A stretch of DNA of 64,000 bases from Spirochaetota bacterium (lineage in GTDB: Bacteria; Spirochaetota; Brachyspiria; Brachyspirales; JACRPF01), in the NCBI GenBank assembly GCA_016214035.1, contig JACRPF010000017.1, positions 23,427 through 87,426 on the forward strand. Reading direction: 5' to 3'. This document shows positions 519 to 64,000 of this stretch, piece by piece. The notes below the pieces were generated by a model, which saw only the letters and a program-made list of their open reading frames with translations, did not search any database and was not told the origin of the DNA. Position 1 is the first letter of the stretch; the number at the start of each line of letters is the position of its first letter. The position numbers and the translations under genes were made by a program.

Positions 519-1973
519 ATGGCTGCACATGGATTTCACGTTGCAAAATCGAAAAATGAGATATCGCTTCTGCTGCCGATGGCAAATCGCCATGGGTTGA
601 TCGCAGGCGCAACCGGCACCGGCAAAACGGTATCGCTCAAGGTGCTTGCCGAATCGTTCAGCGCCGCGGGCGTTCCCGTGTTCATGGCCGATGTCAAGGG
701 CGATCTCGCCGGAATAGCGATGAGCGGAACGCCGTCGCCGAAAATGGATGAGCGCTGCAAGACGATCGGCACGCCGGTACCCGCATTCCGCGCATTCCCC
801 GTCATGCTCTGGGACGTGTTCGGCGCGAAGGGACACCCGGTACGCACCACCATATCGGATATGGGGCCGCTGCTGTTCTCACGGCTGCTCGATCTGAACG
901 AAGTACAGACGGGCGTTTTGAACATCGTCTTCAAAGTTGCCGACGATAACGGACTCCTGCTGCTCGACATGAAAGACCTCAGAGCGATGCTTGAATATGT
1001 TGGCAATAATGCGGGTCAGTTCACCACCGAATATGGAACCGTCTCGAAACAGACTATCGGCGCCATCCAGCGGCCGCTCCTCACACTCGACGGACAGGGC
1101 GCTGATAAATTCTTCGGCGAACCGGCGCTCAATATCACCGACTTCATGAAAACCGACGCCGCCGGAACCGGATATATCAACATACTCGCCGCCGATGCGC
1201 TGATACAATCACCCTCGCTGTATGCTACATTCCTCCTCTGGCTCATGTCGGAACTCTTCGAACACCTGCCCGAGGCGGGCGATCTTGACAAACCGAAGAT
1301 GGTTTTCTTTTTCGATGAAGCGCATCTTCTGTTCGACGGTGCGCCAAAGATACTCCTCGACAAAATTGAACAGGTGGTGCGCCTCATCCGTTCCAAGGGT
1401 GTCGGCATTTATTTCGTAACGCAGAACCCGCTCGATATACCCGATGATATCCTTGGTCAGCTCGGCAACCGCATTCAGCATGCGCTCCGTGCGTTCACAC
1501 CGCGCGACCAGAAAGCGGTGCGTGCGGCAGCGGAAACATTCCGCGCAAACCCCGGACTCGATGTGGCAGCCACCATAACCGAACTCGGCGTGGGCGAAGC
1601 GCTGGTATCATTCCTTGATGAAGCAGGACGCCCTGCGCCGGTGGAACGCGCGTTTATCCTCCCTCCGCAAAGCCGCATCGGTGTCATCACGCCGGAGGAA
1701 TCTGATCGTATTCTGAAAAGTTCACCGTGCACCGGTATATACGACCGGACCGTCGACCGTGAATCCGCGTATGAAGTACTTCAGAAACGCGCAACGGCTC
1801 CCGTGGAACAGCCCGCCGCGCAGCCCGTTGAACGGCAGTACCTGGACCCGTCATACCGGGGACGTCCGCGCCGTACCGTACTCGAAACGGTAGCACAATC
1901 AGCAGCGTCGTCCATCGGCCGAAGGGTTGGAACGGAAATAATACGGGGCATACTCGGATCGTTTTTGAGGTAG
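519..1973 (+). CDS. DUF853/YjgR-type HerA-like P-loop ATPase
   Basis: [15 protein letters not shown] Walker [11 protein letters not shown] Walker [22 protein letters not shown]; GGAGGA RBS. Confidence 0.92.
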
Positions 1974-3433
1974 TGAGTATGTTACAGATATCCCGTATCC
2001 TTCTCGTTCTGATTCTTCCGATTATCATCATCGCATGCTCCGGCATACCCGGCGACGGCTACAACTATGCCGGCGCCGATAAAAGTGCCGGCGGTCTTGC
2101 CGGCAGCTACGGCGGCACACTTAACGTTCTTATGGTTCAACGGCTCAAACTCGTGATGAATATCACCAACGACAACGGAAAATGGCGCGCAACGCTTGAT
2201 AGTCCCGACCAGGGGGCGATGAACATACCGGTGAACAGGGTAACCGTCAGCAACGACACCATCCGCCTCGATATAAAAATGCTGCAGGCGGTTTTCGAAG
2301 GCAAAATCTCCGGCAATCAGATCAAGGGCAAATTCACCCAGCGCGGTCTGGGGATGGATCTTACGCTCGGCCGCCTGAAAGCGCCGTATACAATCAAACG
2401 GCCGCAGGAACCTATCAAGCCATATCCCTATACCGATGCGGAAGTATTTATCACCAATTCGGTTGACGGTATCGTACTCGCCGGCACATTGACCAAACCA
2501 TCCGGCGGCGGCAGATACCCCGCCGTCGTATTGATAACCGGCTCCGGCGCACAGGACCGCGATGAATCACTCCTCGGACACAAACCGTTCCTGGTGCTGG
2601 CGGACTATCTTACACGGCATGGCTTTGCGGTACTCCGCATGGATGACCGCGGTTTCGGAAAATCCGGCGGCGTGTTCGCTACAGCCACGTCCGCCGACTT
2701 TACCCGCGACATCCTTGCCGCTGTCGATTTTCTGAAAATGAGAAACGATGTTCTTACCGCCAAAATCGGATTGATCGGCCACAGCGAAGGCGGTGAGATA
2801 GCACCGATGGCCGCCAACCGCTCCACCAACGTAGCGTTCATCGTGCTCCTGGCTGCACCCGGCATCACCGGCTCGGAGATAAACCTGCTTCAGAACCGCG
2901 CGGCGTTTGCGGGAAGCTTTGTTGACAAGCGATTTCTTCAGGATTATCTTGCCATGCTTAAAAGCATTCATACGATAATCATCAATGAACCGGACAATGA
3001 CGCTGCACGAAAAAAAGCGATAGCCGAATATGAGCAGTATGCGGCGAATAAGGATGCCGCCAAACTGAAGAAATACAATATCACTTCCGAGAACATGACG
3101 CGAAGCATCGCAACATTCACAACGCCATGGTTCCGCTACTTTCTCGAGCATGACCCCGCGCTTGAGCTTGAGAAGCTGAAATGTCCGGTATTGGTGCTTA
3201 ACGGATCGCTAGACACCCAGGTGGACCCGAAAGCCAATCTGTCGGCGATACGGACCGCTCTTGCAAAAGGTCAAAACGCCGACTACGAAGTCATTGAATT
3301 ACCGGGCTTGAATCACCTGTTCCAGAAAGCCAAAACCGGGAAGGCATATGAATACGGCATCATCGCCGAGACGATCAACCGGTCGGCGCTGGATGTAATG
3401 GGGACATGGCTTAAGAAGAAAACGGAAAAATAA
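1973..3433 (+). CDS. Exported alpha/beta hydrolase (probable lipoprotein)
   Basis: Signal/lipobox IIAC; GSGAQDRD, GHSEGG nucleophile elbow, D-x-QV, NHLFQ catalytic His. Confidence 0.9.
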   Translation: MSMLQISRILLVLILPIIIIACSGIPGDGYNYAGADKSAGGLAGSYGGTLNVLMVQRLKLVMNITNDNGKWRATLDSPDQGAMNIPVNRVTVSNDTIRLDIKMLQAVFEGKISGNQIKGKFTQRGLGMDLTLGRLKAPYTIKRPQEPIKPYPYTDAEVFITNSVDGIVLAGTLTKPSGGGRYPAVVLITGSGAQDRDESLLGHKPFLVLADYLTRHGFAVLRMDDRGFGKSGGVFATATSADFTRDILAAVDFLKMRNDVLTAKIGLIGHSEGGEIAPMAANRSTNVAFIVLLAAPGITGSEINLLQNRAAFAGSFVDKRFLQDYLAMLKSIHTIIINEPDNDAARKKAIAEYEQYAANKDAAKLKKYNITSENMTRSIATFTTPWFRYFLEHDPALELEKLKCPVLVLNGSLDTQVDPKANLSAIRTALAKGQNADYEVIELPGLNHLFQKAKTGKAYEYGIIAETINRSALDVMGTWLKKKTEK

Positions 3434-4003
3434 TCAGTGGTGATGATGTTCGTTACCTTCATCTTCGCCTTCTGCGAACTTGAAGAACTGCACATACGCC
3501 TCGATATACGCTCTTCCCGCCTTGACATTATTGACGTCATGTTTTTTCAACGATAACGCTTTATCAAATCGTTTCTGCACCTCGGCGGTTTTATCTTTTG
3601 GAACAAGCCCGTTCAATGGTGATAGATTTCCAATCGCTAGTGCTTTATCGGCGGCAAGTATCTTCCTGTCAATCGGCGTCCCCGACGGCTTCACGCCGGT
3701 GAACGGTACCCCTTCGCCATTCCGGTGTATCCTTACGAGCGTGTCGAAAAAATATCTGTCCGACAGCACTTTTGCGTCGGAATTCAATGTACGTACTTTC
3801 ATCGTCAGTGAAAACACCTGCTTGATATCCTTCTCGCTTTCAGGCGCCACCCATTTCAACACATAATTTACATTATTGCTTTCAATCGCCTTTTTGGCGT
3901 CGGCGATTAACGGCCCATCCATGGTGTCACAGTGAGCGAATACGGCCTGGCTGCACAACACTGAAAACAACACCGCAGCCGTGCATGAAAACTTTTTATT
4001 CAT
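3434..4003 (-). CDS. DUF6448-like exported protein with His-rich C-terminus
   Basis: Signal peptide then AHCDTMDGP; FFDTLVRIHRNGEG; ends EHHHH; ATG at 4003 with GGAGGA RBS. Confidence 0.75.
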   Translation of the reverse strand: MNKKFSCTAAVLFSVLCSQAVFAHCDTMDGPLIADAKKAIESNNVNYVLKWVAPESEKDIKQVFSLTMKVRTLNSDAKVLSDRYFFDTLVRIHRNGEGVPFTGVKPSGTPIDRKILAADKALAIGNLSPLNGLVPKDKTAEVQKRFDKALSLKKHDVNNVKAGRAYIEAYVQFFKFAEGEDEGNEHHHH

Positions 4004-34056: not shown

Positions 34057-36192
34057 ATGATAACCCTCGGCACCCAATATTACCGCGCACCGTTCCCCGA
34101 AAATCGCTACTGGGAACAGGACCTCAAACAGATGAAGGAATCGGGTCTTAACACCGTGCAGTTGTGGGTGCTCTGGGGATGGGTGGAAGCAAAACAGGGA
34201 ACGTATAACTTCAGCGATTATGACCGCCTTGTGGATATCGCCCAGAAATACGGCCTCGGTGTGGTGTTGAGCACCATCGCCGAGATTCATCCATACTGGA
34301 TACACGACGCCGTACCCGGCAGCGAAATGGTCACCAACATGGGCGTGAAAGTGGTGTCATCAAATCGCGGCGAATGTCATTACGGAATCACTCCCGGAGG
34401 ATGCTTCGACCATCCCGGCGTCTGGGAGCGGATGCAGTCGTTCATACGCGCAACTGCTGAGCGTTTCGGCAAAGCACCGCACCTTCGCGGCTGGGACGCA
34501 TGGAACGAACTGCGCTGGAATGTGAATGCGGACGGTCTTGTCTGTTATTGCGACAACACGCTCGCAACGTTCCGCGCGTGGCTTGAGATGCAATACGGCA
34601 CGCTCGACGGACTTAACAAAGCATGGCGCAGACGCTATAGCAGCTTCAAGGAAGTGATGCCGGGTAAGATGGTAGGACGTCCCTATACGGAGATGATGGC
34701 ATTCAACCATTTCATCACGGCGCGGGCGAACGCTCATGCCAAACTCAGATACGACACCATCAAAACTATCGATAAAATACATCCGGTCACCGTCCACGGC
34801 GCACAGCCGTCACCATATTACGCCGGCGATATGAACGCACCGCATTATGTCATGCCGCTCGACCGCGGCAACGACTGGTCGTTCGTCGAGAACACCGACG
34901 GCATGGGTTTCTCAAGCTTCCCGAAATGGGGCAATCAGGACGACACCACATTCGCCGTACGCGTTTCCATCGGCGCTTCGGCGGCGACGAGCAACAATAA
35001 ACGCATGTGGCTTTCAGAACTTCAGGGCGGTCGCTCGTCGATAGGTTTTGTGGAGCCGCATCTTGTCGTCGATGCTAAATCACAGCAGCGCTGGCTCTGG
35101 AACGGCATCGCCGGCGGAGCTGACACCGTGCTCTTCTGGTGCTGGCGCGACGAGGTCTTCGGCTGTGAGTCGAACGGTTTCGGCATCATCGGCAATGACG
35201 GCCGTCGTGACGAACGGGTTGTTGCACTCAAACGCACCGGTAAAATGCTCGTAGACCATGAAGCGCTGCTCGCTGCGTATAAACCGCTGAAAGGTTCGGT
35301 GGGTGTGCTCTTCAGTCCGCAGACGTACTATCTCTACGGCGCACAGGACGGCAAAGCGGGCAGAGTGTTCAACGCGATGGAAGGATATTGCCGCGCGCTT
35401 TCACGGCTCAACATCCCCTACACGGTGGTCGAGGAAGAGCATCTCGCCGTACTCGACGGCATCAAACTGCTCTTCATCCCGAAGACGATGGTCATCGCCG
35501 AAAAAACCGAAAAGGTCATCGAAGCGTTCATCAACAATGGCGGCACGGTTGTCTGTGAATCCGAGTTCGGCGCATTCGACACCGCCGGAGTCTATCGCTA
35601 TCCGGAAGACCGTTTTATCACCAGACTTACCGGCATCCGCGAGATTGGACGCCGTAATCTGCCGAAAGGAAACACAAAAAATAAAGACCTGCCGGCACCG
35701 GCAGCATATACGATAAACGGTATCAAAGCATCGCTCTTCCCTGCCCAGTGGATAACACCGCTCACCGGCAGCGGCACCGTGCTTGCGCGGCATGACGAAG
35801 GCGCGCTGGCGCTCGAAACACAATGCGGTAATGGCCGCGTGATAATGATCGGCACCTATCTCGGCGAGAACAATCGCGATTCGCTAGAAATGGAACGTTT
35901 TATCGGAGCAATAGTCGCAGGAGCAAAGATAGCCGCACCCGTGAGCGTCCAGTCACCCGTACCCTCCGGAAGAAATTTCGTGCAGATCATCGCCGGAAAA
36001 TCGAGCGATAAGCGTGTGGTCTTTGTGTTTTTCCCGCGAGAATGCGAATGCAAAAGCGCCGCATTATCCATGACGGACGGCTTCACCGGCGTTCTTGCCG
36101 ATGCCGTTTCGGGAGAAAATATCCGGGTCACAAATGGCCGCTGTACGGTAAAAAACACCGACCTCGCGTTTGCGATGCTGATCGAAAGCTAA
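34057..36192 (+). CDS. GH42-family beta-galactosidase
   Basis: WEQDLKQMKESGLNTV, WNE acid/base, SELQGG nucleophile, trimerisation domain; AAGGAG RBS. Confidence 0.88.
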   Translation: MITLGTQYYRAPFPENRYWEQDLKQMKESGLNTVQLWVLWGWVEAKQGTYNFSDYDRLVDIAQKYGLGVVLSTIAEIHPYWIHDAVPGSEMVTNMGVKVVSSNRGECHYGITPGGCFDHPGVWERMQSFIRATAERFGKAPHLRGWDAWNELRWNVNADGLVCYCDNTLATFRAWLEMQYGTLDGLNKAWRRRYSSFKEVMPGKMVGRPYTEMMAFNHFITARANAHAKLRYDTIKTIDKIHPVTVHGAQPSPYYAGDMNAPHYVMPLDRGNDWSFVENTDGMGFSSFPKWGNQDDTTFAVRVSIGASAATSNNKRMWLSELQGGRSSIGFVEPHLVVDAKSQQRWLWNGIAGGADTVLFWCWRDEVFGCESNGFGIIGNDGRRDERVVALKRTGKMLVDHEALLAAYKPLKGSVGVLFSPQTYYLYGAQDGKAGRVFNAMEGYCRALSRLNIPYTVVEEEHLAVLDGIKLLFIPKTMVIAEKTEKVIEAFINNGGTVVCESEFGAFDTAGVYRYPEDRFITRLTGIREIGRRNLPKGNTKNKDLPAPAAYTINGIKASLFPAQWITPLTGSGTVLARHDEGALALETQCGNGRVIMIGTYLGENNRDSLEMERFIGAIVAGAKIAAPVSVQSPVPSGRNFVQIIAGKSSDKRVVFVFFPRECECKSAALSMTDGFTGVLADAVSGENIRVTNGRCTVKNTDLAFAMLIES

Positions 36193-37313
36193 TATCGCGC
36201 TGTCATCCGCAGGCCGAGATACTCTTCCTGAATACCGAGCGCATACCGTGTGCCAGTATGTATGTTGTAGTCGAACACAAGCGGTATACCGAGCGACTTC
36301 GACATGGCGTCGTTGAACGACAACGTATAGACAATAGGCCGTACTATCTGATACACTTTATTCCCGAAGAAAAGCACAAAGAACGATGTCAGTATAAATC
36401 CGCGCTGTCTATCAAGGTCCTGGTACGTCTTATAATCCTGACTATTGCTGTAAACCGAGCCGTTTGTATATTTATAATACATAGTTGATCCGCTGCTAGA
36501 GTAAAACAGCGATGAGGTCGGGGGTATCCATTTATACTCGTCTTCCTTTGCGGATATCCCCAATTGCGTAAAGAATGCCGCCCACGCAACTACATCGACG
36601 CCGAGGCCGACAAGTCCGCCCCAGCCGTCACCCTGCGTGAATGAACCGATACCGAAACCGGGAGCTATACCGAGCCATAACGGACTCCAGAAATCCTTTT
36701 TGAATTCGCGTACCAGCTGAACCTTTTCAGCGTCAGTGATATACGGCGCTTCTTTGACTATCGTGTTGGTATTCGCAAAGATGTCATCCGCAATCAATTT
36801 TCTTACTTTCAGAAACGGCGACACACCGGACTGTACGATACGTTTACCGCCGACAAGCTGATCGACCACGCGTTTGATGGCCTTGGCAAGATCATCGAGA
36901 CCTTCTGTGGAATCGCTCACCGATTTCTCAACCTTGGACGTCTCAATATCCACCACGGTGATAATAAGATAATATTTTGCCCCGAGCTTGCTCATCGTGC
37001 CGTACATCATCTTCTGCATGTTGAGCATTTTTCCTATTTGTACCGCGCACTCGGTTGATGTGCAGCCGGACTGCTGAAACGACTGCTCCTTGAGTATCTC
37101 GTCCATCTTCCCGCGCTCGAGCACGGTATACACGTTCGCATTCACGAGTTCATTGCGAAATATCTCCGACACGGTTTTAACATCCGCAGGAGCTATGCCC
37201 GCACCGCCCTGAAATTCGATGATACCTATGTTTACCGGCTTTGCTGCGGGAGTCTGCGCCCCGAGCATTATTGACAACAACAGAAACAACGGGATGATAT
37301 GATGTGATCTCAT
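36189..37313 (-). CDS. CsgG-like domain fused to P13-like porin domain
   Basis: VLERGKMDEILKEQSFQQSGCTSTECAVQIGK (CsgG/HfaB-like); LGIAPGFGIGSFTQGD (Borrelia P13-like). Confidence 0.7.
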   Translation of the reverse strand: MRSHHIIPLFLLLSIMLGAQTPAAKPVNIGIIEFQGGAGIAPADVKTVSEIFRNELVNANVYTVLERGKMDEILKEQSFQQSGCTSTECAVQIGKMLNMQKMMYGTMSKLGAKYYLIITVVDIETSKVEKSVSDSTEGLDDLAKAIKRVVDQLVGGKRIVQSGVSPFLKVRKLIADDIFANTNTIVKEAPYITDAEKVQLVREFKKDFWSPLWLGIAPGFGIGSFTQGDGWGGLVGLGVDVVAWAAFFTQLGISAKEDEYKWIPPTSSLFYSSSGSTMYYKYTNGSVYSNSQDYKTYQDLDRQRGFILTSFFVLFFGNKVYQIVRPIVYTLSFNDAMSKSLGIPLVFDYNIHTGTRYALGIQEEYLGLRMTARY

Positions 37314-37450
37314 ACGACACTCCTTGCAATCCTGCTTCATCTGGCCTTCTTAAAGCGGATGAACGGATACAGAATCACCTGATACACACTTTACCAAATC
37401 AAAGCAGGATGTCAATAGTGCACCCCGCATCGTAAGCGTAATCGCCACTA

Positions 37451-39044: not shown

Positions 39045-39104
39045 GAATTCATAGTTCATTGATTGTCAATCTGGTTTACTGCCCGTGAAAACAGGCAGGA
39101 GGAT

Positions 39105-40316
39105 ATGGTTATGCGTAACATGAAAACGCTTACCGCTCTTACACTTGTACTTACATTGACCGTTGGCACTTCACTTCATCCCGCCACAAGTGATTCTTTT
39201 GACTTCCTCAATATCGGCATGGGCGGCATCTCCGCATCCATGGGGCGCGCATCGGCAGCAGATGTAAAAACAATTGAAGGTATTTATAACAATCCGGCAT
39301 CGCTTGGTTCACTCGAAGGCATGACATTCGCCGGAGCATACAACCCGTACCTGTCGATGTCGCTCTGGAACGTTGCCGGTGCCGTTGCTCTCGCAAAAGG
39401 ATTGAACGTCGCCGCCGCCGTCTACGGCCTTGCATATGATGACATCATCGGCGACATACAGTATAACGGCGATGTCGGCCGCAAGCTTCCCGCCGGGGAC
39501 ATGATAGCCAGCGTCAGCGCCGCCGCAAACCTCGGCGCACTCCTCGGTCTCCCGCTCAATATCGACATCGGGGCCAATGGAAAATACGCCTCGGAAACGC
39601 TCGATGATCTTTCACTTTCAGGCGTCATGTTCGACATCGGCGCCATCATCCGTTTTGATAATGTCTTCGGCAAGGATACGCTCTCGTTCGGCGCAACCGC
39701 AAAAAACATCGGCGTTGCCTTCTCATCGTCTCCCTCGGAGCTCGCGCTTCCCTCAACGATTGTCGCCGGAGCCGCATACGATTTCGCGGTAGGCAATTCG
39801 TTCAGCCTCAAAATGCTCACCGATATTGAAGCAAGCCTGAACAGCAATCCGCTGCGCGGCGCCATCGGCGCGGAAGCGGGACTCTTCAACCTTATATTCA
39901 TACGCGCAGGATATCTTATCGGCGGTGACGCGCGCGGCTTCACCATGGGTACCGGCATACATGTGACGCTCGGCGGCATGGCGGCACGCTTCGACTACGC
40001 ATTTATCCCGCTCGGCGATCTCGGCGCACAGCACAATATGCAGTTCGGTGTATCGTTCGGCGACAATGCGCCTGCCGCAGCGACGGCTGAGAAAAAAGCG
40101 GAAACGGCAAGGGCTTCCGCACCTGAAGCCGCAACATCGGATATGAGTGACGAAGACCTGCTGAAAGCCGGTGTTGAATATGCAAAAAATAAGGACTTGG
40201 AAAAGGCGATAAAATCGTGGAAAAAGATCGGTCCGGATTCGGAATATTACGAAAAAGCACAGCGGAACATAAAGAAGGCAAATCAGAAACTCCGCGAGGT
40301 CGAGGACGATCTCTAA
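39105..40316 (+). CDS. PorV/PorQ (UPF0164)-like outer-membrane beta-barrel with C-terminal TPR-like tail
   Basis: DFLNIGMGGISASMG, YNNPASL, FDIG...NIG, FIRAGY, FDYAF-x-PLGDLG-x-x-H; then Ala-rich linker and a helical repeat; AGGAGG RBS. Confidence 0.8.
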   Translation: MVMRNMKTLTALTLVLTLTVGTSLHPATSDSFDFLNIGMGGISASMGRASAADVKTIEGIYNNPASLGSLEGMTFAGAYNPYLSMSLWNVAGAVALAKGLNVAAAVYGLAYDDIIGDIQYNGDVGRKLPAGDMIASVSAAANLGALLGLPLNIDIGANGKYASETLDDLSLSGVMFDIGAIIRFDNVFGKDTLSFGATAKNIGVAFSSSPSELALPSTIVAGAAYDFAVGNSFSLKMLTDIEASLNSNPLRGAIGAEAGLFNLIFIRAGYLIGGDARGFTMGTGIHVTLGGMAARFDYAFIPLGDLGAQHNMQFGVSFGDNAPAAATAEKKAETARASAPEAATSDMSDEDLLKAGVEYAKNKDLEKAIKSWKKIGPDSEYYEKAQRNIKKANQKLREVEDDL

Positions 40317-59777: not shown

Positions 59778-62309
59778 CTAGAATGCAACGCTCAAACCGG
59801 CGGTGAATGACAGGCCGTACACGGCCTCATACACCCCGGCGATATCGATGCGGTACTTCATAAGCCCGAGGTCGGACATCCAGCCGATGCCGCCGGTGCC
59901 GGCAAGCGTCATCGCACCTGCGGTCTGTATCGCATTGATGCGCAAGCCGCCGCGGAACTCAAGTGATTCAAAAATGCGGTACATAGCTCCCCCGCCGACC
60001 GCAACGCCCTCAAGCTCCGAATATCCCGTATGCAGATATCCGGTGACGCTGTTGTTCTCCATACGCAGAAAATTGTAGGTAACATCGAACGATGCGGCCA
60101 CCGGCAGCATCTCGCTTGTCGTGCCGTATTTTACCGGTATACCGAGGTTCCGTGCATTGCCGCCGAACGCAAGCGTATACGGGCGTTCTTCCGAGCTCAG
60201 ATAGATGAGCTGGGTAAGATACAGCTGCCACTTGTATTCGTTGATTACCGCTTCAAACCGTTCCACAAGCATTGCACCGTCCTTCGCGCGCTGGTCCTGG
60301 AGCGCTCCGCGTTCCTGTGTCTGCTTTTCACGGATTGACTTCACTTTAGCCTCGTCTTTTCCGGCATCAACAGCCGCCACATCGGCACTCTCGTCAACCA
60401 CCTCGAACTTACGCGCATAGACATCGTTGACGGCGCTCACCTCAACATCCTGTTTCGCCCGTTCTTCGCGTATGAACTCCTCGATGAGGCCGCGCTTTGA
60501 TTTATACAGCTGCAGCAGAAGTCCTTTGAACAGGTCAGTCTCGTCTTTTTTATAGAGTGCAACGGCTTCATCAGCGGCATCCTTACCCGCCGCATTCAGC
60601 AGATCAAGTTCTTTCTTGAGTTTTATTTTTTTCAGGTCCTTGAGCATGGCATCTACAGGGACGGTAAGCGCACCAACCTCGCGGTTGTACGTTTCATCTA
60701 GGCGGACGAGTTTCGTTTTCACCTGCGTGATCAGTTTTTCCTTCTCCGCCAGCAGCGTGAGATATTTACCGTAGCTCTTGAGCGCACCGTTGAAGTACAG
60801 CTGCTGCGGAACGGTGAACTGACGTTTGTTGTCGCCGAGATATTTCTGTATCTCCTGGCGCATCGTCTCGCCGCGCGCAATGACCGTCTTATATGTCTTC
60901 TCGTCGACGTCTGCCGTTTTCTGTTCCACCGGAATCTTCACCACACTGCCCGCCTTCGGCACCGGGAGTTCCTTCACCCCTACTTTCATGGCTACGCCGT
61001 TGTATACCGCAATATCCTCACCGCGCTTCGCGTCTCCCATGAAATTGGATGCAATCGTGCCCCAGGTGTCCCCTTTTGCGATCGTATATTCCTTATATCC
61101 GCGCTCACGGTCCTGCGCTGTTATTGTTGTGGCAGTCACTTTCTGCGTCGCGACACGTTTTATCGCCGCAAACTGCTCCTCCGCAAACGCCTCATAAATA
61201 TCAAAGAGCGCATTCGCCTTGTCCACCAGCTCAGGGATATCGGTGTTTTTCTTGAACTGATCCCGGTATTTCGTCGCGTCTTTATATAATGTTTCAATAT
61301 CCTCATTAATTCGCTTATTCAGCGCCTTACCGTTATCATTGACGCCTTTGGCCGCCGTGTCAATGAGTGTCTTCATTTCAACGTTGGCGTTACTGATGAA
61401 ATTAGAAACGTATTCTCCGCTGATCTCCTGATTAAGCGCATACGTCATCGTGTAGATATTCGACCGTGTACGGTGCACATCGCGTATCTCCACCTGCCGT
61501 TTGCCGTAGACATCGCCGATGCGTTTGGTGTATGCTTCGAATTGCGCGTCATATTCCGCCTTCTTCGAAGCCGCGTTTGAAATTGCCTTCTGATCATCGA
61601 GCTCTTTCTTCTTCCCGTCAATCATCGCCTTGTACTGACCGATCACACGCTGCCGCTCAAGCTGCACATCAGACTCATTGATAAGCTGTTCGGGCATGCC
61701 GATGAACGGAACGCTCAGCTTATAACTCAAATTCACATCGGCCAGCACCGAGAACGTGCTGTAACTCGCAAGTGTGGACTGATAATAGGTGAGATTTACC
61801 GCGGCGTTCAGCGGTGCGAGCAGCGGATAGAGCGCGTTGGGCTCGTACTTGTTATTCGACGGATTGAGCACCTGCCGCTGCAGTTTGAGGCTTTTCTGAT
61901 CGAACACGAACGCGGCGCCCGCAAGGAGGTCGCCGGACGTGAACTTTTCCACAAGCCGTCCGCGAGAATCGAGCTGATCGAGGTTACCGAGGTTCAGGTA
62001 GTTCAAAAAGCCCGCAACGCGAAGACCTTTGGTGAACAGATTATCCTTCACCGACACATACACCGTTTCAAACCCGATGTCGTTGATGAGCATCGAACCG
62101 TTATGGTAGAATGCTATCTCAAGCTTGTCCTTATTCGCCGAAAGACCGCTGTAGGCGCGCGTAATGGGTACCGAGACATCAAGCAGATCGGCACCGCCGC
62201 CGACGGCCATGGAATACGGCGAGGGTTCATACACGAGCATGCTCGGAGTCGCAAATGCCATACACGCGCCGAGGAGCGCTGTTGTTACAACAGGTATTAT
62301 GTTTCTCAT
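59778..62309 (-). CDS. PorV-like beta-barrel with inserted coiled-coil and LysM domain
   Basis: Signal peptide; barrel half aa ~20-200; helical region aa ~200-710 with LysM YTIAKGDTWGTIA...YN...KIP (aa ~406-460); barrel half ending GLSVAF. Confidence 0.7.
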   Translation of the reverse strand: MRNIIPVVTTALLGACMAFATPSMLVYEPSPYSMAVGGGADLLDVSVPITRAYSGLSANKDKLEIAFYHNGSMLINDIGFETVYVSVKDNLFTKGLRVAGFLNYLNLGNLDQLDSRGRLVEKFTSGDLLAGAAFVFDQKSLKLQRQVLNPSNNKYEPNALYPLLAPLNAAVNLTYYQSTLASYSTFSVLADVNLSYKLSVPFIGMPEQLINESDVQLERQRVIGQYKAMIDGKKKELDDQKAISNAASKKAEYDAQFEAYTKRIGDVYGKRQVEIRDVHRTRSNIYTMTYALNQEISGEYVSNFISNANVEMKTLIDTAAKGVNDNGKALNKRINEDIETLYKDATKYRDQFKKNTDIPELVDKANALFDIYEAFAEEQFAAIKRVATQKVTATTITAQDRERGYKEYTIAKGDTWGTIASNFMGDAKRGEDIAVYNGVAMKVGVKELPVPKAGSVVKIPVEQKTADVDEKTYKTVIARGETMRQEIQKYLGDNKRQFTVPQQLYFNGALKSYGKYLTLLAEKEKLITQVKTKLVRLDETYNREVGALTVPVDAMLKDLKKIKLKKELDLLNAAGKDAADEAVALYKKDETDLFKGLLLQLYKSKRGLIEEFIREERAKQDVEVSAVNDVYARKFEVVDESADVAAVDAGKDEAKVKSIREKQTQERGALQDQRAKDGAMLVERFEAVINEYKWQLYLTQLIYLSSEERPYTLAFGGNARNLGIPVKYGTTSEMLPVAASFDVTYNFLRMENNSVTGYLHTGYSELEGVAVGGGAMYRIFESLEFRGGLRINAIQTAGAMTLAGTGGIGWMSDLGLMKYRIDIAGVYEAVYGLSFTAGLSVAF

Positions 62310-62318
62310 ATGCCGCTC

Positions 62319-64000
62319 CTATTTTGTCACGAGTATCTTGAAATACTTCTGGAAATTGTTCGGACCGCGCACAATGATCACATACAGACCAGCCCGCACC
62401 TTTTCGCCGCCCGCTTTCTCACCGCCCCAGTCTGCGCGATTGGCGCTGAACGCAAGCTCGGTTATCTTGTAGCCCATCGCGTCATACACATACGCCCGGT
62501 ACAATGCCGCGTCGCCGTTGTTCACGACATACACGCTCGCCTTCTCGCCCTTGGCGATGTTGATGAACGTGTTCGCCGCGGCTATCTTGTCCTCGGCTTT
62601 CACCTCGAGGCTCGGCAGCACCGTGCAGTAGCCGGTGGTATCGGGGCTGTAATTATTGAGCACCACCGGATACGACGTTCCAGCCACATTGATGCCGGTG
62701 AATCCGGCCTGGTCTGCACGCGGCATGGAGATGCGGAACCTGCTGTTGGCCTTGGCATCGCCGCCGATCTGCACAACCAGATAGAACACCCGTGTGTTGC
62801 TGGTGATACTTATGGTATTATTAAACGTAAGCTTCATCTTGCCGCCGATGAAAAAGCCCGTTGCGCCGTCAACCGGCGTGTCCCCGCCGTCAAACTCGCC
62901 GACTTTCGTACCCGTATCGCTGTAGAGCGCCGCGTTGCCGATACTGTTTGTAGCGCCGTCAATCTCTTCAATGCTGAACGACAGGCTGTTGAGGCTGTAG
63001 CTCGCATCGTCATCCGCTGCCGCTATCATTACACGCATCGCCGCGATGCCGTTGCTGCCCTGAAGCGCTTCCGTCGCCAGCAGATTGCTAACCGAAACCG
63101 TTACCGCTGCGTTATCGAGTGCAATCGGCGTCATCGTCAAATTCGTCAGCCAGTATTGGTCGGCCGTTGTCCCGGCGTTCGGCCCGCCGCTCAGAAGCGA
63201 CGTTACCCTGAACATGTTCGTTGCCGTCGACGCAAAACTCAACGGCGTATACGTGATGAAGTACCGGTCAGGATTATCCCAGTCGTACGAACCGCTGTTC
63301 GAAAACGATATCGCCACAGCACTGTTCATATTCGAAATGAAGTTATTCGAAGATATGCACACGCCGCTCGTGAACGTATCGTCGTTCTTCGTGTTCGTGT
63401 ATATGTTGAAGTAGCCGTAGAACGCCGCATTCGTATACACATTCGAAAGTACAAGACCGGCAATGTATTCCGGTTCCGCAAGACTTTGATTCTCACGGTA
63501 TGCATCGAAATACATAATCGGTATCTCAACGTTCGAAAGCGCCGTTGCCGGCGTCTTGTTACGCGAGAACACCGCCTTTACATCCCAATACTGTGCGCCG
63601 AGTTTCTGTATCTTTACATTCGTCGCCGGAGCCGGTCCGCTCATAACACCCGTTAGGAACGATTTTAGCACAAAGCTCGCGTTCGACACTACCGGTGAAA
63701 GACCGATAGCGCCATTCGTTATCGTCAGACCCAGGCGATTATCAATCACATTGCTCGCGCTGTCGACGTTGTAACCCACATAGAATGTGTTCACATTCGT
63801 GCCCACCAGCGCCAGCGGCACCGGGAAATCAAGCCGTACGCTCGTTCCGTTGAACGCGCGCGACGGAGTAGCCGGAGTACCGAGCTGCAGAGCGTTTATC
63901 TTATTCGTATACAGCGCCATATACGGTATCATGCCCGACGCAACCGTGGACTGACCGTTCGCGGACACGTCAATGTACGACAGATAATTCGTCGCATTCA
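62319..64000 (-). CDS. Large beta-rich secreted/surface protein with T9SS-CTD/FlgD-like C-terminal domain (5' truncated by window)
   Basis: Frame is open to the window edge; N/T/S-rich; ends VYDAMGYKITEL...WGGEKAGGEKVRAGLYVIIV...FKILVTK. Confidence 0.75.
   Translation of the reverse strand, partial: NATNYLSYIDVSANGQSTVASGMIPYMALYTNKINALQLGTPATPSRAFNGTSVRLDFPVPLALVGTNVNTFYVGYNVDSASNVIDNRLGLTITNGAIGLSPVVSNASFVLKSFLTGVMSGPAPATNVKIQKLGAQYWDVKAVFSRNKTPATALSNVEIPIMYFDAYRENQSLAEPEYIAGLVLSNVYTNAAFYGYFNIYTNTKNDDTFTSGVCISSNNFISNMNSAVAISFSNSGSYDWDNPDRYFITYTPLSFASTATNMFRVTSLLSGGPNAGTTADQYWLTNLTMTPIALDNAAVTVSVSNLLATEALQGSNGIAAMRVMIAAADDDASYSLNSLSFSIEEIDGATNSIGNAALYSDTGTKVGEFDGGDTPVDGATGFFIGGKMKLTFNNTISITSNTRVFYLVVQIGGDAKANSRFRISMPRADQAGFTGINVAGTSYPVVLNNYSPDTTGYCTVLPSLEVKAEDKIAAANTFINIAKGEKASVYVVNNGDAALYRAYVYDAMGYKITELAFSANRADWGGEKAGGEKVRAGLYVIIVRGPNNFQKYFKILVTK

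Follow-up and report, generated by a model that had tools for sequence, protein, structure and literature searches.

Does the end of this stretch of DNA encode a T9SS-like cargo together with an outer-membrane carrier of its own, and does it do so in an organism outside the FCB group? An earlier examination of the letters alone (hereafter, the sequence-only reading) proposed a CTD/PorV-based secretion or surface-anchoring pathway outside FCB, and we find this proposal supported by the homology of the C-terminal domain (CTD), a putative interface between CTD and barrel, the adjacency of the two genes in 11/11 loci, and a spirochaete host. The window analysed here is the whole stretch of 64,000 nucleotides, in which the following features bear on the question:

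62319..64000, minus strand: 3' end of the cargo gene, its last 559 codons and the stop (ORF listing, extended on the contig).
62319..62606, minus strand: candidate sorting-type domain at the C terminus of the cargo, 95 aa plus the stop codon (motifs, conservation, hhalign, AF2, Foldseek).
62310..62320, minus strand: junction, with an AGGAG at 62320-62316 overlapping the stop and a 9-nt spacer (sequence read).
59778..62309, minus strand: predicted PorV-like outer-membrane barrel of 843 aa and 14 strands, interrupted by a periplasmic insert and here called p843 (AF2, structure alignment, HMMs).
60201..61676, minus strand: insert of p843, residues ~212-703, a predicted coiled-coil arm (DSSP of the AF2 model).
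60930..61118, minus strand: LysM-like module midway along the arm, residues ~398-460, of beta-alpha-alpha-beta build (model elements and family matches).
39105..40316 (TTG ORF start at 39063), plus strand: second PorV-like paralogue (NF033709 match).

The cargo ORF leaves the window, starting beyond 64000, and only its C-terminal 559 aa lie inside. The full gene, read on the contig (G000:C15 85745-96512, where G000 is this genome), encodes 3,588 aa, with a signal peptide at the N-terminus, about eight tandem repeats of ~336 aa each (21-43% identity among repeats), and a composition in which N, T and S together make up 29%. Scans of five cargos of the p843-associated subfamily found no Pfam family in any of them (0/5). 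The cargo C-terminus reads ...YRAYVYDAMGYKITELAFSANRADWGGEKAGGEKVRAGLYVIIVRGPNNFQKYFKILVTK and includes YD-x-x-G, W-G-G, GLY-x-I and a terminal KILVTK; the earlier description of a large protein ending in a motif-bearing domain thus holds, the domain being a 95-aa predicted beta-sandwich that carries these motifs.

The ORF listing places the two genes on the minus strand, very closely joined. The cargo stop, a TAG at 62321-62319, is followed by the spacer gagcggcat (9 nt) and the barrel ATG at 62309, and the AGGAG that overlaps the TAG stands 6 nt before this ATG, just as had been claimed for a PorV-like gene 9 bp downstream on the same strand with an AGGAG ribosome-binding site. The arrangement recurs elsewhere. 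There are three p843 paralogues in G000, each directly after one of three divergent-CTD cargos, and at the related loci in seven other genomes the directly upstream gene ends in the same CTD (8/8), which gives adjacency in 11/11 loci of the p843 subfamily. Genome-wide, a PorV-like barrel is encoded directly downstream, on the same strand, of 10 of the 36 CTD-terminal ORFs of G000, from a total of 15 barrel ORFs; by our own estimate, which assumes ~4,500 genes, ~0.1 such pairs are expected by chance. The identity matrices of barrels and CTDs correlate (r=0.93, equally high in 0/5,000 permutations), which shows inheritance of the pairs as units. We found no paper describing such an arrangement of a cargo and a private PorV-like barrel in a spirochaete.

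Is the tail really a sorting domain? The sequence-only reading had proposed to score it against CTD HMMs, and the outcome is divided: a direct TIGR04183 match is absent, and profile homology to the typical CTDs of the genome is present. C-terminal pieces of 559, 159 and 109 aa gave no match to TIGR04183 (cut-off 23 bits), the tail is not among the 32 TIGR04183 matches of the genome, and direct HMM scans place it closest to FlgD_ig (E 0.03) and CHU_C (E 0.027). However, when the tail and nine cognates were compared by hhalign with nine typical tails of G000, of which 7/9 exceed the TIGR04183 cut-off, the probability was 97.9% (E 4e-13, 77 columns), and an in-genome HMM likewise connects the tail to the typical CTDs (E 1.3e-16). 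In 10/10 cognate tails, drawn from eight genomes, residues G45, W60, G73 and Y75 do not vary. The AF2 model is a beta-sandwich of eight strands (pLDDT 90.7), for which the top Foldseek match is the T9SS component PorZ (5m11, whichever PorZ region; E 4.7e-5, TMq 0.72); the bound substrate CTDs of NucA and RemA (8glk_D, 8gl6_D), RgpB and PorU stand lower in the list, among generic Ig folds. Further CTD proteins, which had been suggested as something to count, are plentiful in G000: 25 ORFs lie above the TIGR04183 cut-off, 32 at E<=0.01, and 36 by the in-genome profile, the domain being at the extreme C terminus in all 36. The cargo also has the type-A layout, namely a beta-sandwich of ~80-100 aa at the extreme C terminus and a Sec-type signal peptide. 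On this evidence, the tail is homologous to T9SS type-A CTDs, from which it has diverged.

The partner p843 is modelled (pLDDT 74) as a barrel of 6 + 8 strands split by the insert. In VIA-align, the two PorV chains score Z 19.1 and 19.0 (8gl6_F: Z 19.1, 272 aligned, 15% identity), values that tie with those of other 14-strand barrels (CymA, OmpG and FadL at Z 17-19), and Foldseek returns 8gl6_F with TMt 0.51 over an alignment spanning the insert. The PorV_fam model NF033709 gives only split matches on p843 itself, at 14.3 and 18 bits (E 0.022 and 0.0018), below its 90-bit cut-off; among the ten family members, 5/10 match it at E<=0.01 (best 1.8e-40), and members also match NF033710 and NF033711. 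An in-genome PorV-like HMM matches two paralogues (E 6.4e-5 and 6.6e-5). NCBIfam scans of the barrel do not list TIGR03519 (PorP/SprF), which also has no match in G000 or in another genome, G244, with a weak positive control (1/3 FCB genomes). By its model, p843 is a PorV-like, FadL-type 14-strand barrel.

The second PorV-like paralogue that had been noticed at 39105 also stands, at 85.8 bits to NF033709 (E 3.9e-24), near the 90-bit cut-off. It is a plain barrel of 403 aa from the ATG (417 aa from the TTG) with a helical C-terminal tail, no CTD gene adjoins it, and close relatives occur in only 3/301 genomes at E<=1e-25. Judged by eye from the translations, it appears beside a transporter-like gene, and the ORF upstream of it on the opposite strand resembles an AraC-type regulator.

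What distinguishes p843 from a plain barrel is the arm of ~490 aa between strands 6 and 7 of 14, with long helices of up to ~74 residues in the model DSSP. In the complex model described below, it leaves from a periplasm-facing turn, on the barrel face opposite all the CTD-contacting loops. The LysM-like module in its middle is built from E405-409, H416-424, H427-436 and E456-460, and D414-T415-W416, I419-A420 and Y436-N437 are invariant across the three paralogues. Pfam LysM (PF01476) aligns to p843 below its cut-off, at E 0.03 and over positions 1-16 of 43, and NF008399 LysM is matched by 3/10 family members (best 8.8e-8). This predicted helical insert, with its module on the side away from the CTD, fits the earlier idea that the cargo may dock on a wall-anchored barrel. 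Peptidoglycan-tethered proteins of the OmpA type, and PorE of the T9SS, similarly link the outer membrane to the wall through a periplasmic binding module, and PorE is reported to bind a peptidoglycan fragment (PMC7192894). Theirs is a separate domain or protein, whereas that of p843 is LysM-like and sits midway in a coiled coil inserted between two barrel strands.

A CTD-barrel interface had been named as something to look for in predicted complexes, and one is predicted for the CTD with p843: the model has an ipSAE of 0.80 (runs 0.79-0.81), with 0.00 for the best of three controls, a score that may reflect memory of a solved structure because the PorV-CTD complex 8GL6 already exists. This ipSAE mark is attained by 116/157 solved complexes and by 2/215 mismatched pairs; at least 84% of the contacts are common to the runs, and the partner pLDDT is at least 82. 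The modelled contacts all fall on the outer loops of the barrel (strands 1-2, 3-4, 5-6, 7-8, 9-10, 11-12 and 13-14) and involve, among other parts of the CTD, its YD-x-x-G stretch and its final strand. The N-terminal segment of the barrel touches the bound CTD, which is a folded sandwich with no strand inside the pore.

The genome-wide search for a translocon that the sequence-only reading had recommended yielded, outside the window, a distant SprA-like outer-membrane protein of 2,205 aa (TIGR04189, 73.5 bits, E 5.7e-21; cut-off 200 bits). It has no PDB sequence match, profile search included; among 22 sampled relatives, 19 match TIGR04189 and five exceed the 200-bit cut-off. The PorU model is matched over its full length in 3/3 FCB control genomes (724-977 bits), but in G000, G244 and G057 solely over its CTD part. 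PorL, PorM and PorN (GldL, GldM, GldN) have no match in G000 with models that also failed in FCB genomes having SprA and PorU, and for GldK, whose model likewise failed in FCB genomes, only FGE-sulfatase-type partial matches below the cut-off were found. Across 301 sampled genomes of the phylum, PorV_fam is matched in 149 (75 above cut-off), and the SprA-like protein is present in 56/72 genomes with CTDs versus 48/229 without, in 21/23 with at least three CTD matches and in 9/9 carrying the p843 family, and is missing from 16/72 CTD-bearing and 57/149 PorV_fam genomes, counts that overstate the support because related genomes are not independent.

The best reading, which we hold with moderate confidence, is that the pair forms a T9SS-like two-gene module displaying a giant surface protein, with p843 as cargo-specific carrier and anchor. 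An alternative that we consider unlikely dispenses with the SprA-like protein: the barrel alone, perhaps with BAM, would export and hold its neighbour in the two-partner or split-autotransporter manner, and the SprA-like protein would have another role. Several observations are in its favor: (i) the SprA-like gene never adjoins the pair, as no giant ORF lies downstream in the three loci examined and, at ten loci, the SprA-like gene is without a PorV or CTD gene at a distance of 1.5 kb or less; (ii) the kinship to SprA is distant, at 60-73 bits versus 698-982 bits in FCB genomes; (iii) the protein occurs in 48 of the 229 genomes without CTD matches and is missing from 16 of the 72 with them; (iv) motor genes were not found in G000, by the models that failed in FCB genomes too; and (v) the strict 1:1 pairing of genes recalls two-partner systems. 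Against it, a 3,588-aa passenger would find no obvious way through a 14-strand barrel whose N-terminal segment touches the modelled CTD, and this CTD rests folded on the outer loops, not in the pore. Moreover, the triad co-occurs, in 21/23 multi-CTD and 9/9 p843 genomes, and some shared route must exist because 26/36 CTD proteins are without a private barrel.

It is still less probable that p843 serves as an outer-membrane anchor tethered to the wall and the "CTD" as an Ig-like docking domain of FlgD_ig type, in which case the likeness to the T9SS would reflect no more than shared ancestry of parts, and the cargo could be oriented towards the periplasm or belong to the outer sheath. The direct matches of the tail to FlgD_ig and CHU_C rather than TIGR04183, the mostly Ig-like folds in its Foldseek list, the failure to find PorU in G000, and an arm with a LysM-like module that suggests a structural tether all agree with such a role. 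Against it are the profile homology of the tail to the TIGR04183-positive tails, PorZ as top structural match, the docking modelled on the extracellular face, and the extreme C-terminal position of the domain in 36 ORFs.

We regard as very improbable a third possibility, in which p843 would take up hydrophobic compounds as a FadL-type channel and would stand next to a big gene without functional significance. FadL, TodX and TbuX do reach Z 16.4-17.9, the orphan paralogue at 39105 seems by eye to have its transporter-like neighbour, and in Brachyspira pilosicoli, of the same phylum, the annotated PorV/PorQ-family barrel BP951000_RS08455, of the same family as p843, is read in the available part of a preprint as a lone FadL-like channel, without a link there to a cargo, a CTD or a SprA-like protein (10.1101/2025.01.03.631275). 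Nevertheless, the invariable adjacency in the subfamily, the 9-nt junction at this locus, the ten pairs among 36 CTD genes and the complex score of 0.80 versus 0.00 for controls all argue against this reading, and the sequence identity of p843 is 15% to PorV versus 7-13% to the FadL, TodX and TbuX chains.

The host is a spirochaete and not a member of FCB, as had been supposed: G000 has two copies of FlaA, which is found in 101/101 sampled genomes of the phylum and 0/14 control genomes and which, to our knowledge, is specific to spirochaetes. Contamination of a spirochaete bin by an FCB contig with an ordinary T9SS is hardly credible, despite a contamination estimate of 4.65%, given CTD/barrel pairs on at least nine contigs that are uniformly 51-55% GC, a SprA-like gene together with rpoB and rpoC on contig C22, a P13-porin-like domain encoded in the window itself, the recurrence of the CTD, barrel and SprA-like families in many phylum genomes, and the lack here of PorU and of a strong SprA, which FCB controls possess.

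How does this carrier-and-anchor module compare with known systems? The nearest is PorV (LptO) with SprA/Sov of F. johnsoniae (6H3I, 8GL6), which shares the 14-strand barrel; in the solved translocon, as far as the available text describes it, PorV holds substrate CTDs by its extracellular loops inside SprA, and the CTD of the p843 cargo is modelled on the corresponding loops (PMC10994853). In the Bacteroidota, according to the accessible part of a recent paper, a single PorV serves all type-A cargos (PMC12618676), whereas p843 has its place in a set of at least 15 paralogues, shares a locus with its cargo, carries the periplasmic arm, and belongs to a spirochaete in which no PorU was found for release or re-attachment. 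The same source describes, for type-B CTD cargos of F. johnsoniae (SprB/SprF), large adhesin genes linked to a dedicated outer-membrane shuttle of the PorP/SprF-like kind that is required for secretion and sets the final location (PMC12618676), the same logic as in our pair; here, however, the tail is type-A-like (CHU_C only at E 0.027), and the partner is PorV-like.

Under the best reading, the route would be as follows. The cargo would be exported by its Sec-type signal peptide and then sorted in a type-IX-like way through its CTD, crossing the outer membrane through the distant SprA/Sov-like barrel, after which its own PorV-like carrier would take it over, with the CTD resting on the extracellular loops. 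As no PorU sortase was found, the CTD probably escapes cleavage, so that the carrier would stay as a permanent non-covalent anchor. The coiled-coil arm with its LysM-like module may reach the peptidoglycan and so fix the fibre to the wall, and tight translational coupling would yield one anchor per cargo.

The cargo, a giant secreted repeat protein, is followed directly by the gene for p843, an 843-aa PorV-like barrel after which its subfamily is named here. The sequence-only reading had placed a PorV-like gene 9 bp past the cargo, on the same strand and behind an AGGAG ribosome-binding site, and the junction bears this out:

62319 to beyond 64000, minus strand: cargo ORF, open at the window end, with its TAG stop at 62321-62319
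62320-62316, minus strand: AGGAG, overlapping the cargo stop and 6 nt ahead of the p843 ATG
59778-62309, minus strand: p843 ORF, 843 aa, with its ATG at 62309, nine bases after the cargo stop (read from the sequence)

The window corresponds to G000:C15:23427-87426, and when the cargo ORF is extended on this contig, the full-length cargo has 3,588 aa with an N-terminal signal peptide, and Asn, Thr and Ser together make up 29% of it. Residues ~780-3450 consist of about eight tandem repeats of ~336 aa with 21-43% identity, which were detected by windowed BLAST; self-BLAST of the whole protein gave no off-diagonal rows. Pfam families were found in 0/5 proteins, the cargo and four relatives. The sorting-type motifs that had been claimed for the C terminus all lie in the last 60 residues.

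The 95-aa tail had been read as a type-A C-terminal sorting domain (CTD), and this reading holds at the level of profile homology, although not by the curated model. In direct Pfam and NCBIfam scans, the tail gave sub-threshold matches only and none to TIGR04183, its best matches being DUF6385 (E 0.019), CHU_C (E 0.027) and FlgD_ig (E 0.03). However, when a profile of the cargo tail and nine cognates was aligned with a profile of nine typical CTD tails of the source genome, homology was found over 77 columns (probability 97.9%, E 4e-13). The AF2 model of the tail is an eight-strand sandwich (pLDDT 90.7), and its top Foldseek match is PorZ of the Porphyromonas gingivalis T9SS (5m11, E 4.7e-5, TMq 0.72); the lower matches, mixed with generic Ig-like folds, include the T9SS proteins RgpB and PorU and the CTDs of NucA and RemA as bound substrates. 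We therefore place the cargo tail within the type-A CTD superfamily, as a divergent member that falls below the curated threshold. It is not alone in its genome: TIGR04183 has 32 matches there, 25 of them above the curated cut-off, and an HMM seeded with the cargo tail and iterated within the genome finds 36 ORFs that end in the tail domain.

The assignment of p843 to the PorV family comes from sequence evidence. Direct Pfam and NCBIfam scans gave sub-threshold matches only; the NCBIfam model PorV_fam matches p843 weakly, in two separate but collinear parts (N-terminal half, E 0.022; C-terminal half, E 0.0018). The source genome has two paralogues of p843 (E 1.5e-134 and 1.2e-131, 34-35% identity), and when six plain PorV-like paralogues from that genome were built into an HMM and searched against 38,851 ORFs, the C-terminal half was matched in two p843 paralogues (E 6.4e-5 and 6.6e-5). 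Among ten members of the p843 subfamily from eight genomes, five are matched by PorV_fam (best 1.8e-40), three by PorQ, three by PorV and three by a LysM model. The AF2 model of p843 (pLDDT 74, pTM 0.62; residues 11-47 poorly predicted) has 6 + 8 long strands, split by residues ~212-703. In a Foldseek search, only one target, the PorV chain of the translocon with bound substrate (8gl6_F, TMt 0.51), spans the whole barrel across this insert, and VIA-align gives Z 19.1 for 8gl6_F and 19.0 for 6h3i_F, at 15% identity. Because other 14-strand barrels (CymA, OmpG and FadL; Z 17-19, 6-9% identity) are statistically tied with these, the predicted fold by itself is that of a 14-strand barrel, and it is the sequence that points to PorV.

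Since the insert comes after an even number of strands (six), it is predicted to lie on the same side as the chain termini. In barrels of the FadL/PorV class, this side is the periplasm. In the model, this insert (residues ~212-703) is made of long helices that flank a beta-alpha-alpha-beta unit at 405-460. The longest helices of this arm have ~74 residues, or roughly 11 nm by estimate, a length that would suit a periplasm that also houses flagella.

The pairing of tail and barrel extends beyond the window. Each of the two p843 paralogues directly follows one of two other cargos with the same divergent tail, and at 8/8 related loci, drawn from a further seven genomes of the phylum, the p843 homologue is immediately preceded by a gene with this tail at its end. 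Together with the three loci of the source genome, a tail gene adjoins the p843-subfamily gene in 11/11. At locus L047 (G003:C6), in a small genome of 1.7 Mb, what lies upstream of the p843 homologue is an ORF of only 252 aa (3021-3779, minus strand) whose tail stops early, the final strand being missing; this could be a cargo that has decayed or been shortened. Across the whole source genome, a PorV-like barrel gene immediately follows 10 of the 36 CTD ORFs on the same strand, and the gaps, measured from stop to stop, range from -174 to +93 nt. The other 26 lack an adjacent downstream barrel, the genome holds only 15 barrel ORFs, and no cargo lies next to several of these, the window paralogue at 39105 among them. 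Across the ten pairs, barrel identities and tail identities are correlated (r=0.93), a value reached in 0/5,000 permutations. This shows that barrel/tail pairs duplicate and descend as units; covariation alone does not show co-evolution.

An interface between the CTD and the barrel is also predicted. The complex model of the CTD with p843 has an ipSAE of 0.80 (runs 0.79, 0.80 and 0.81) against 0.00 for the best of three controls, at least 84% of the contacts are common to the runs, and the partner pLDDT does not fall below 82. The same ipSAE mark is reached by 116/157 solved complexes and by 2/215 mismatched pairs, counts that hold only roughly here because our own alignments were supplied. 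The CTD contacts p843 at residues 72-80, 105-117, 178-180, 726-736, 765-767, 792-801 and 828-834, all in odd-numbered connections, that is, on the modelled extracellular face opposite the insert. Because a PorV-CTD complex has already been solved, the result may reflect likeness to 8GL6, and the model is a sign that the pair resembles PorV with a CTD rather than of actual binding.

Several other PorV-like genes were observed. The orphan paralogue at 39105 was considered as a conserved general carrier and rejected, close relatives being present in only 3/301 genomes. Two plain PorV-like paralogues, at 39063-40316 of the window (plus strand) and at G000:C1:541483-542973 in the source genome, carry a helical C-terminal tail of ~60 aa with a weak BamD/TPR-like match (TIGR03302, E 0.049); this tail occurs three times in the latter paralogue and also in three ORFs that are unrelated in other respects. 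A further cargo/barrel locus of the source genome was seen on contig C10, with the cargo at 313518-327329 and the barrel at 330217-331605. On the same contig, and likewise outside the window, an ORF of 1,446 aa (G000:C10:48098-52435, plus strand) matches the start of the PorV-like barrel at its N terminus (HMM positions 7-74) and has about seven internal CTD/FlgD_ig-like copies in its middle; it is possibly a fusion of a barrel with CTD-like repeats. A separate observation in the window is a 383-aa protein (36189-37340, minus strand), an unusual fusion of a lipoprotein-type domain and a porin segment: its N-terminal part resembles CsgG (PF03783, 29.1 bits against a cut-off of 20.8), and it also has a segment like the Borrelia P13 porin (PF05628, 30.1 bits, cut-off 25; NF033724, E 4.9e-9).

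A pathway of this kind raises the matter of a translocon and a sortase, and the search of the genome for sprA and porU returned a distant relative of the former and, of the latter, only the CTD part. TIGR04189 (SprA/Sov) matches a 2,205-aa signal-peptide ORF on the contig that also holds rpoB and rpoC:

G000:C22:126881-133498 (L026:5882-12499), outside the window: SprA-like gene

The match (73.5 bits, E 5.7e-21) is below the cut-off of 200, and since FCB control genomes score 698-982 bits, this protein is a distant relative of SprA. An exhaustive search with its residues 150-1300 gave 357 representatives at E<=1e-3, mostly of 1,700-2,300 aa; among 22 sampled across them, 19 match TIGR04189 at E<=1e-5 and five are above the cut-off. 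A word-index search also found a 2,010-aa protein with Pfam SprA_N, and PDB sequence searches with the protein and its profile gave no match. The gene starts 12 nt past an ABC ATPase gene, itself after a MacB/FtsX-type permease (LolCDE-like), and is followed by an MptE-like/PseD-like gene. No cargo gene lies beside it in the source genome, no SprA-like gene lies downstream of the cargo/barrel pair in three loci examined, and in ten loci the SprA-like gene has no PorV or CTD gene within 1.5 kb.

PorU is full-length in 3/3 FCB controls, whereas in the three spirochaete genomes searched its model matches only by the CTD portion. GldL, GldM and GldN have no match in the source genome and GldK has only partial matches of FGE-sulfatase type below the cut-off, but these models also failed to reach the cut-off in the FCB controls. 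The gliding-type models TIGR03517, TIGR03513, TIGR03525 and PF12081 missed the motor/ring genes of the FCB genomes G302-G304, where SprA and PorU score strongly, so negatives with them outside gliding Bacteroidota mean little. The PorP search, which gave no match in the source genome, likewise says little, its positive control being weak.

The host had been called a probable spirochaete, and the marker check agrees. FlaA is the outer-layer protein of spirochaetal periplasmic flagella. It is present in two copies in the source genome and in 101/101 sampled genomes of the phylum, against 0/14 control genomes. The P13-porin-like segment described above is a further feature of the window. An RpoB scan (80 loci from many phyla, 44-61% identity) was uninformative for taxonomy.

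Distribution and co-occurrence in 301 sampled genomes of the phylum
PorV_fam, E<=1e-8: 149/301
PorV_fam, above cut-off: 75/301
TIGR04183, above cut-off (CTD genomes): 72/301
SprA-like profile, E<=1e-20: 104/301, about a third
p843 subfamily, E<=1e-5: 14/301, nine with strong full-length matches
CTD genomes also with PorV_fam: 65/72
CTD genomes with SprA-like protein: 56/72
Genomes without CTD matches but with SprA-like protein: 48/229
Genomes with at least three CTD matches that have SprA-like protein: 21/23
p843-holding genomes with SprA-like protein: 9/9

For the SprA-like protein, the profile search was used because a search with a single protein gave an under-count (70/301). Co-occurrence is given as counts without a statistical test, since related genomes are not independent. 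The two multi-CTD genomes without a SprA-like match are 73% and 78% complete, and the match is absent from three large groups (g3, 0/35; f10, 0/45; f16, 0/28). Beyond this sample, a scan of named genomes with a three-paralogue p843 alignment gave 261 pattern matches, none confirmed, and a metagenome scan gave one weak locus. Some genomes are greatly expanded: G004, G020, G034, G046, G058 and G079 have 38-90 first-look PorV_fam and 33-83 TIGR04183 candidates per 2.3-3.4-Mb genome, and in several cases both kinds of match lie a few hundred bases apart on one contig, e.g., G034:C2 3913-4785 and 4969-5217.

Taken as a whole, what the sequence-only reading observed is confirmed, and its interpretation, a CTD/PorV-based pathway outside the FCB group, is supported. 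In the mechanism that we propose, Sec export would deliver the cargo to the periplasm, and the cargo would then cross the SprA-like pore; we infer the sequence of steps as well as the part played by the SprA-like protein. The CTD would be captured by the cognate PorV-like barrel, at its extracellular loops, and would remain on that barrel because no PorU sortase was found that could cut it. The long periplasmic arm of the barrel, via its LysM-like module, would tie the assembly to peptidoglycan. The most far-reaching reading, to which we give slightly less than an even chance, is of a system without the PorU sortase, built from a divergent SprA-like pore, carriers of the PorV-like kind and cargos with type-A-like CTDs, in which the carriers have multiplied into cargo-specific anchors and one subfamily spans the flagella-containing periplasm by a coiled-coil arm with a LysM-like module, fixing giant surface fibres to the cell wall.

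The T9SS is regarded as a hallmark of the Bacteroidota/FCB group, also in recent abstracts. In the excerpted text of one survey, 60 of the 97 Bacteroidetes genomes carry it and it is reported from no other group (PMC4793230). As described in part of a study of Flavobacterium johnsoniae, all type-A cargos are served by one PorV, while PorP/SprF shuttles are the cognate partners linked with type-B cargos; private carriers have so far been shown there for type-B tags only, whereas the tags here are type-A-like (PMC12618676). According to an extract of a further paper, it is the loops of PorV that substrate CTDs bind within SprA, and the carrier is released by energy input (PMC10994853). A Brachyspira barrel of the PorV/PorQ family is read as FadL-like in a passage of a recent preprint (10.1101/2025.01.03.631275). 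Among open-access papers and bioRxiv, we found no literature on a spirochaete CTD/PorV/SprA-like module, and the system appears to be a variant not previously described, with a predicted function.

Surface-protein export in spirochaetes is poorly understood. If the triad works as a unit, the core of pore, carrier and tag would be older or more mobile than thought, the system could operate without a sortase, and type-A tags could have private carriers. It would also provide a candidate export route for the largest adhesin-like proteins of spirochaetes and a new kind of link between the outer membrane and the cell wall.
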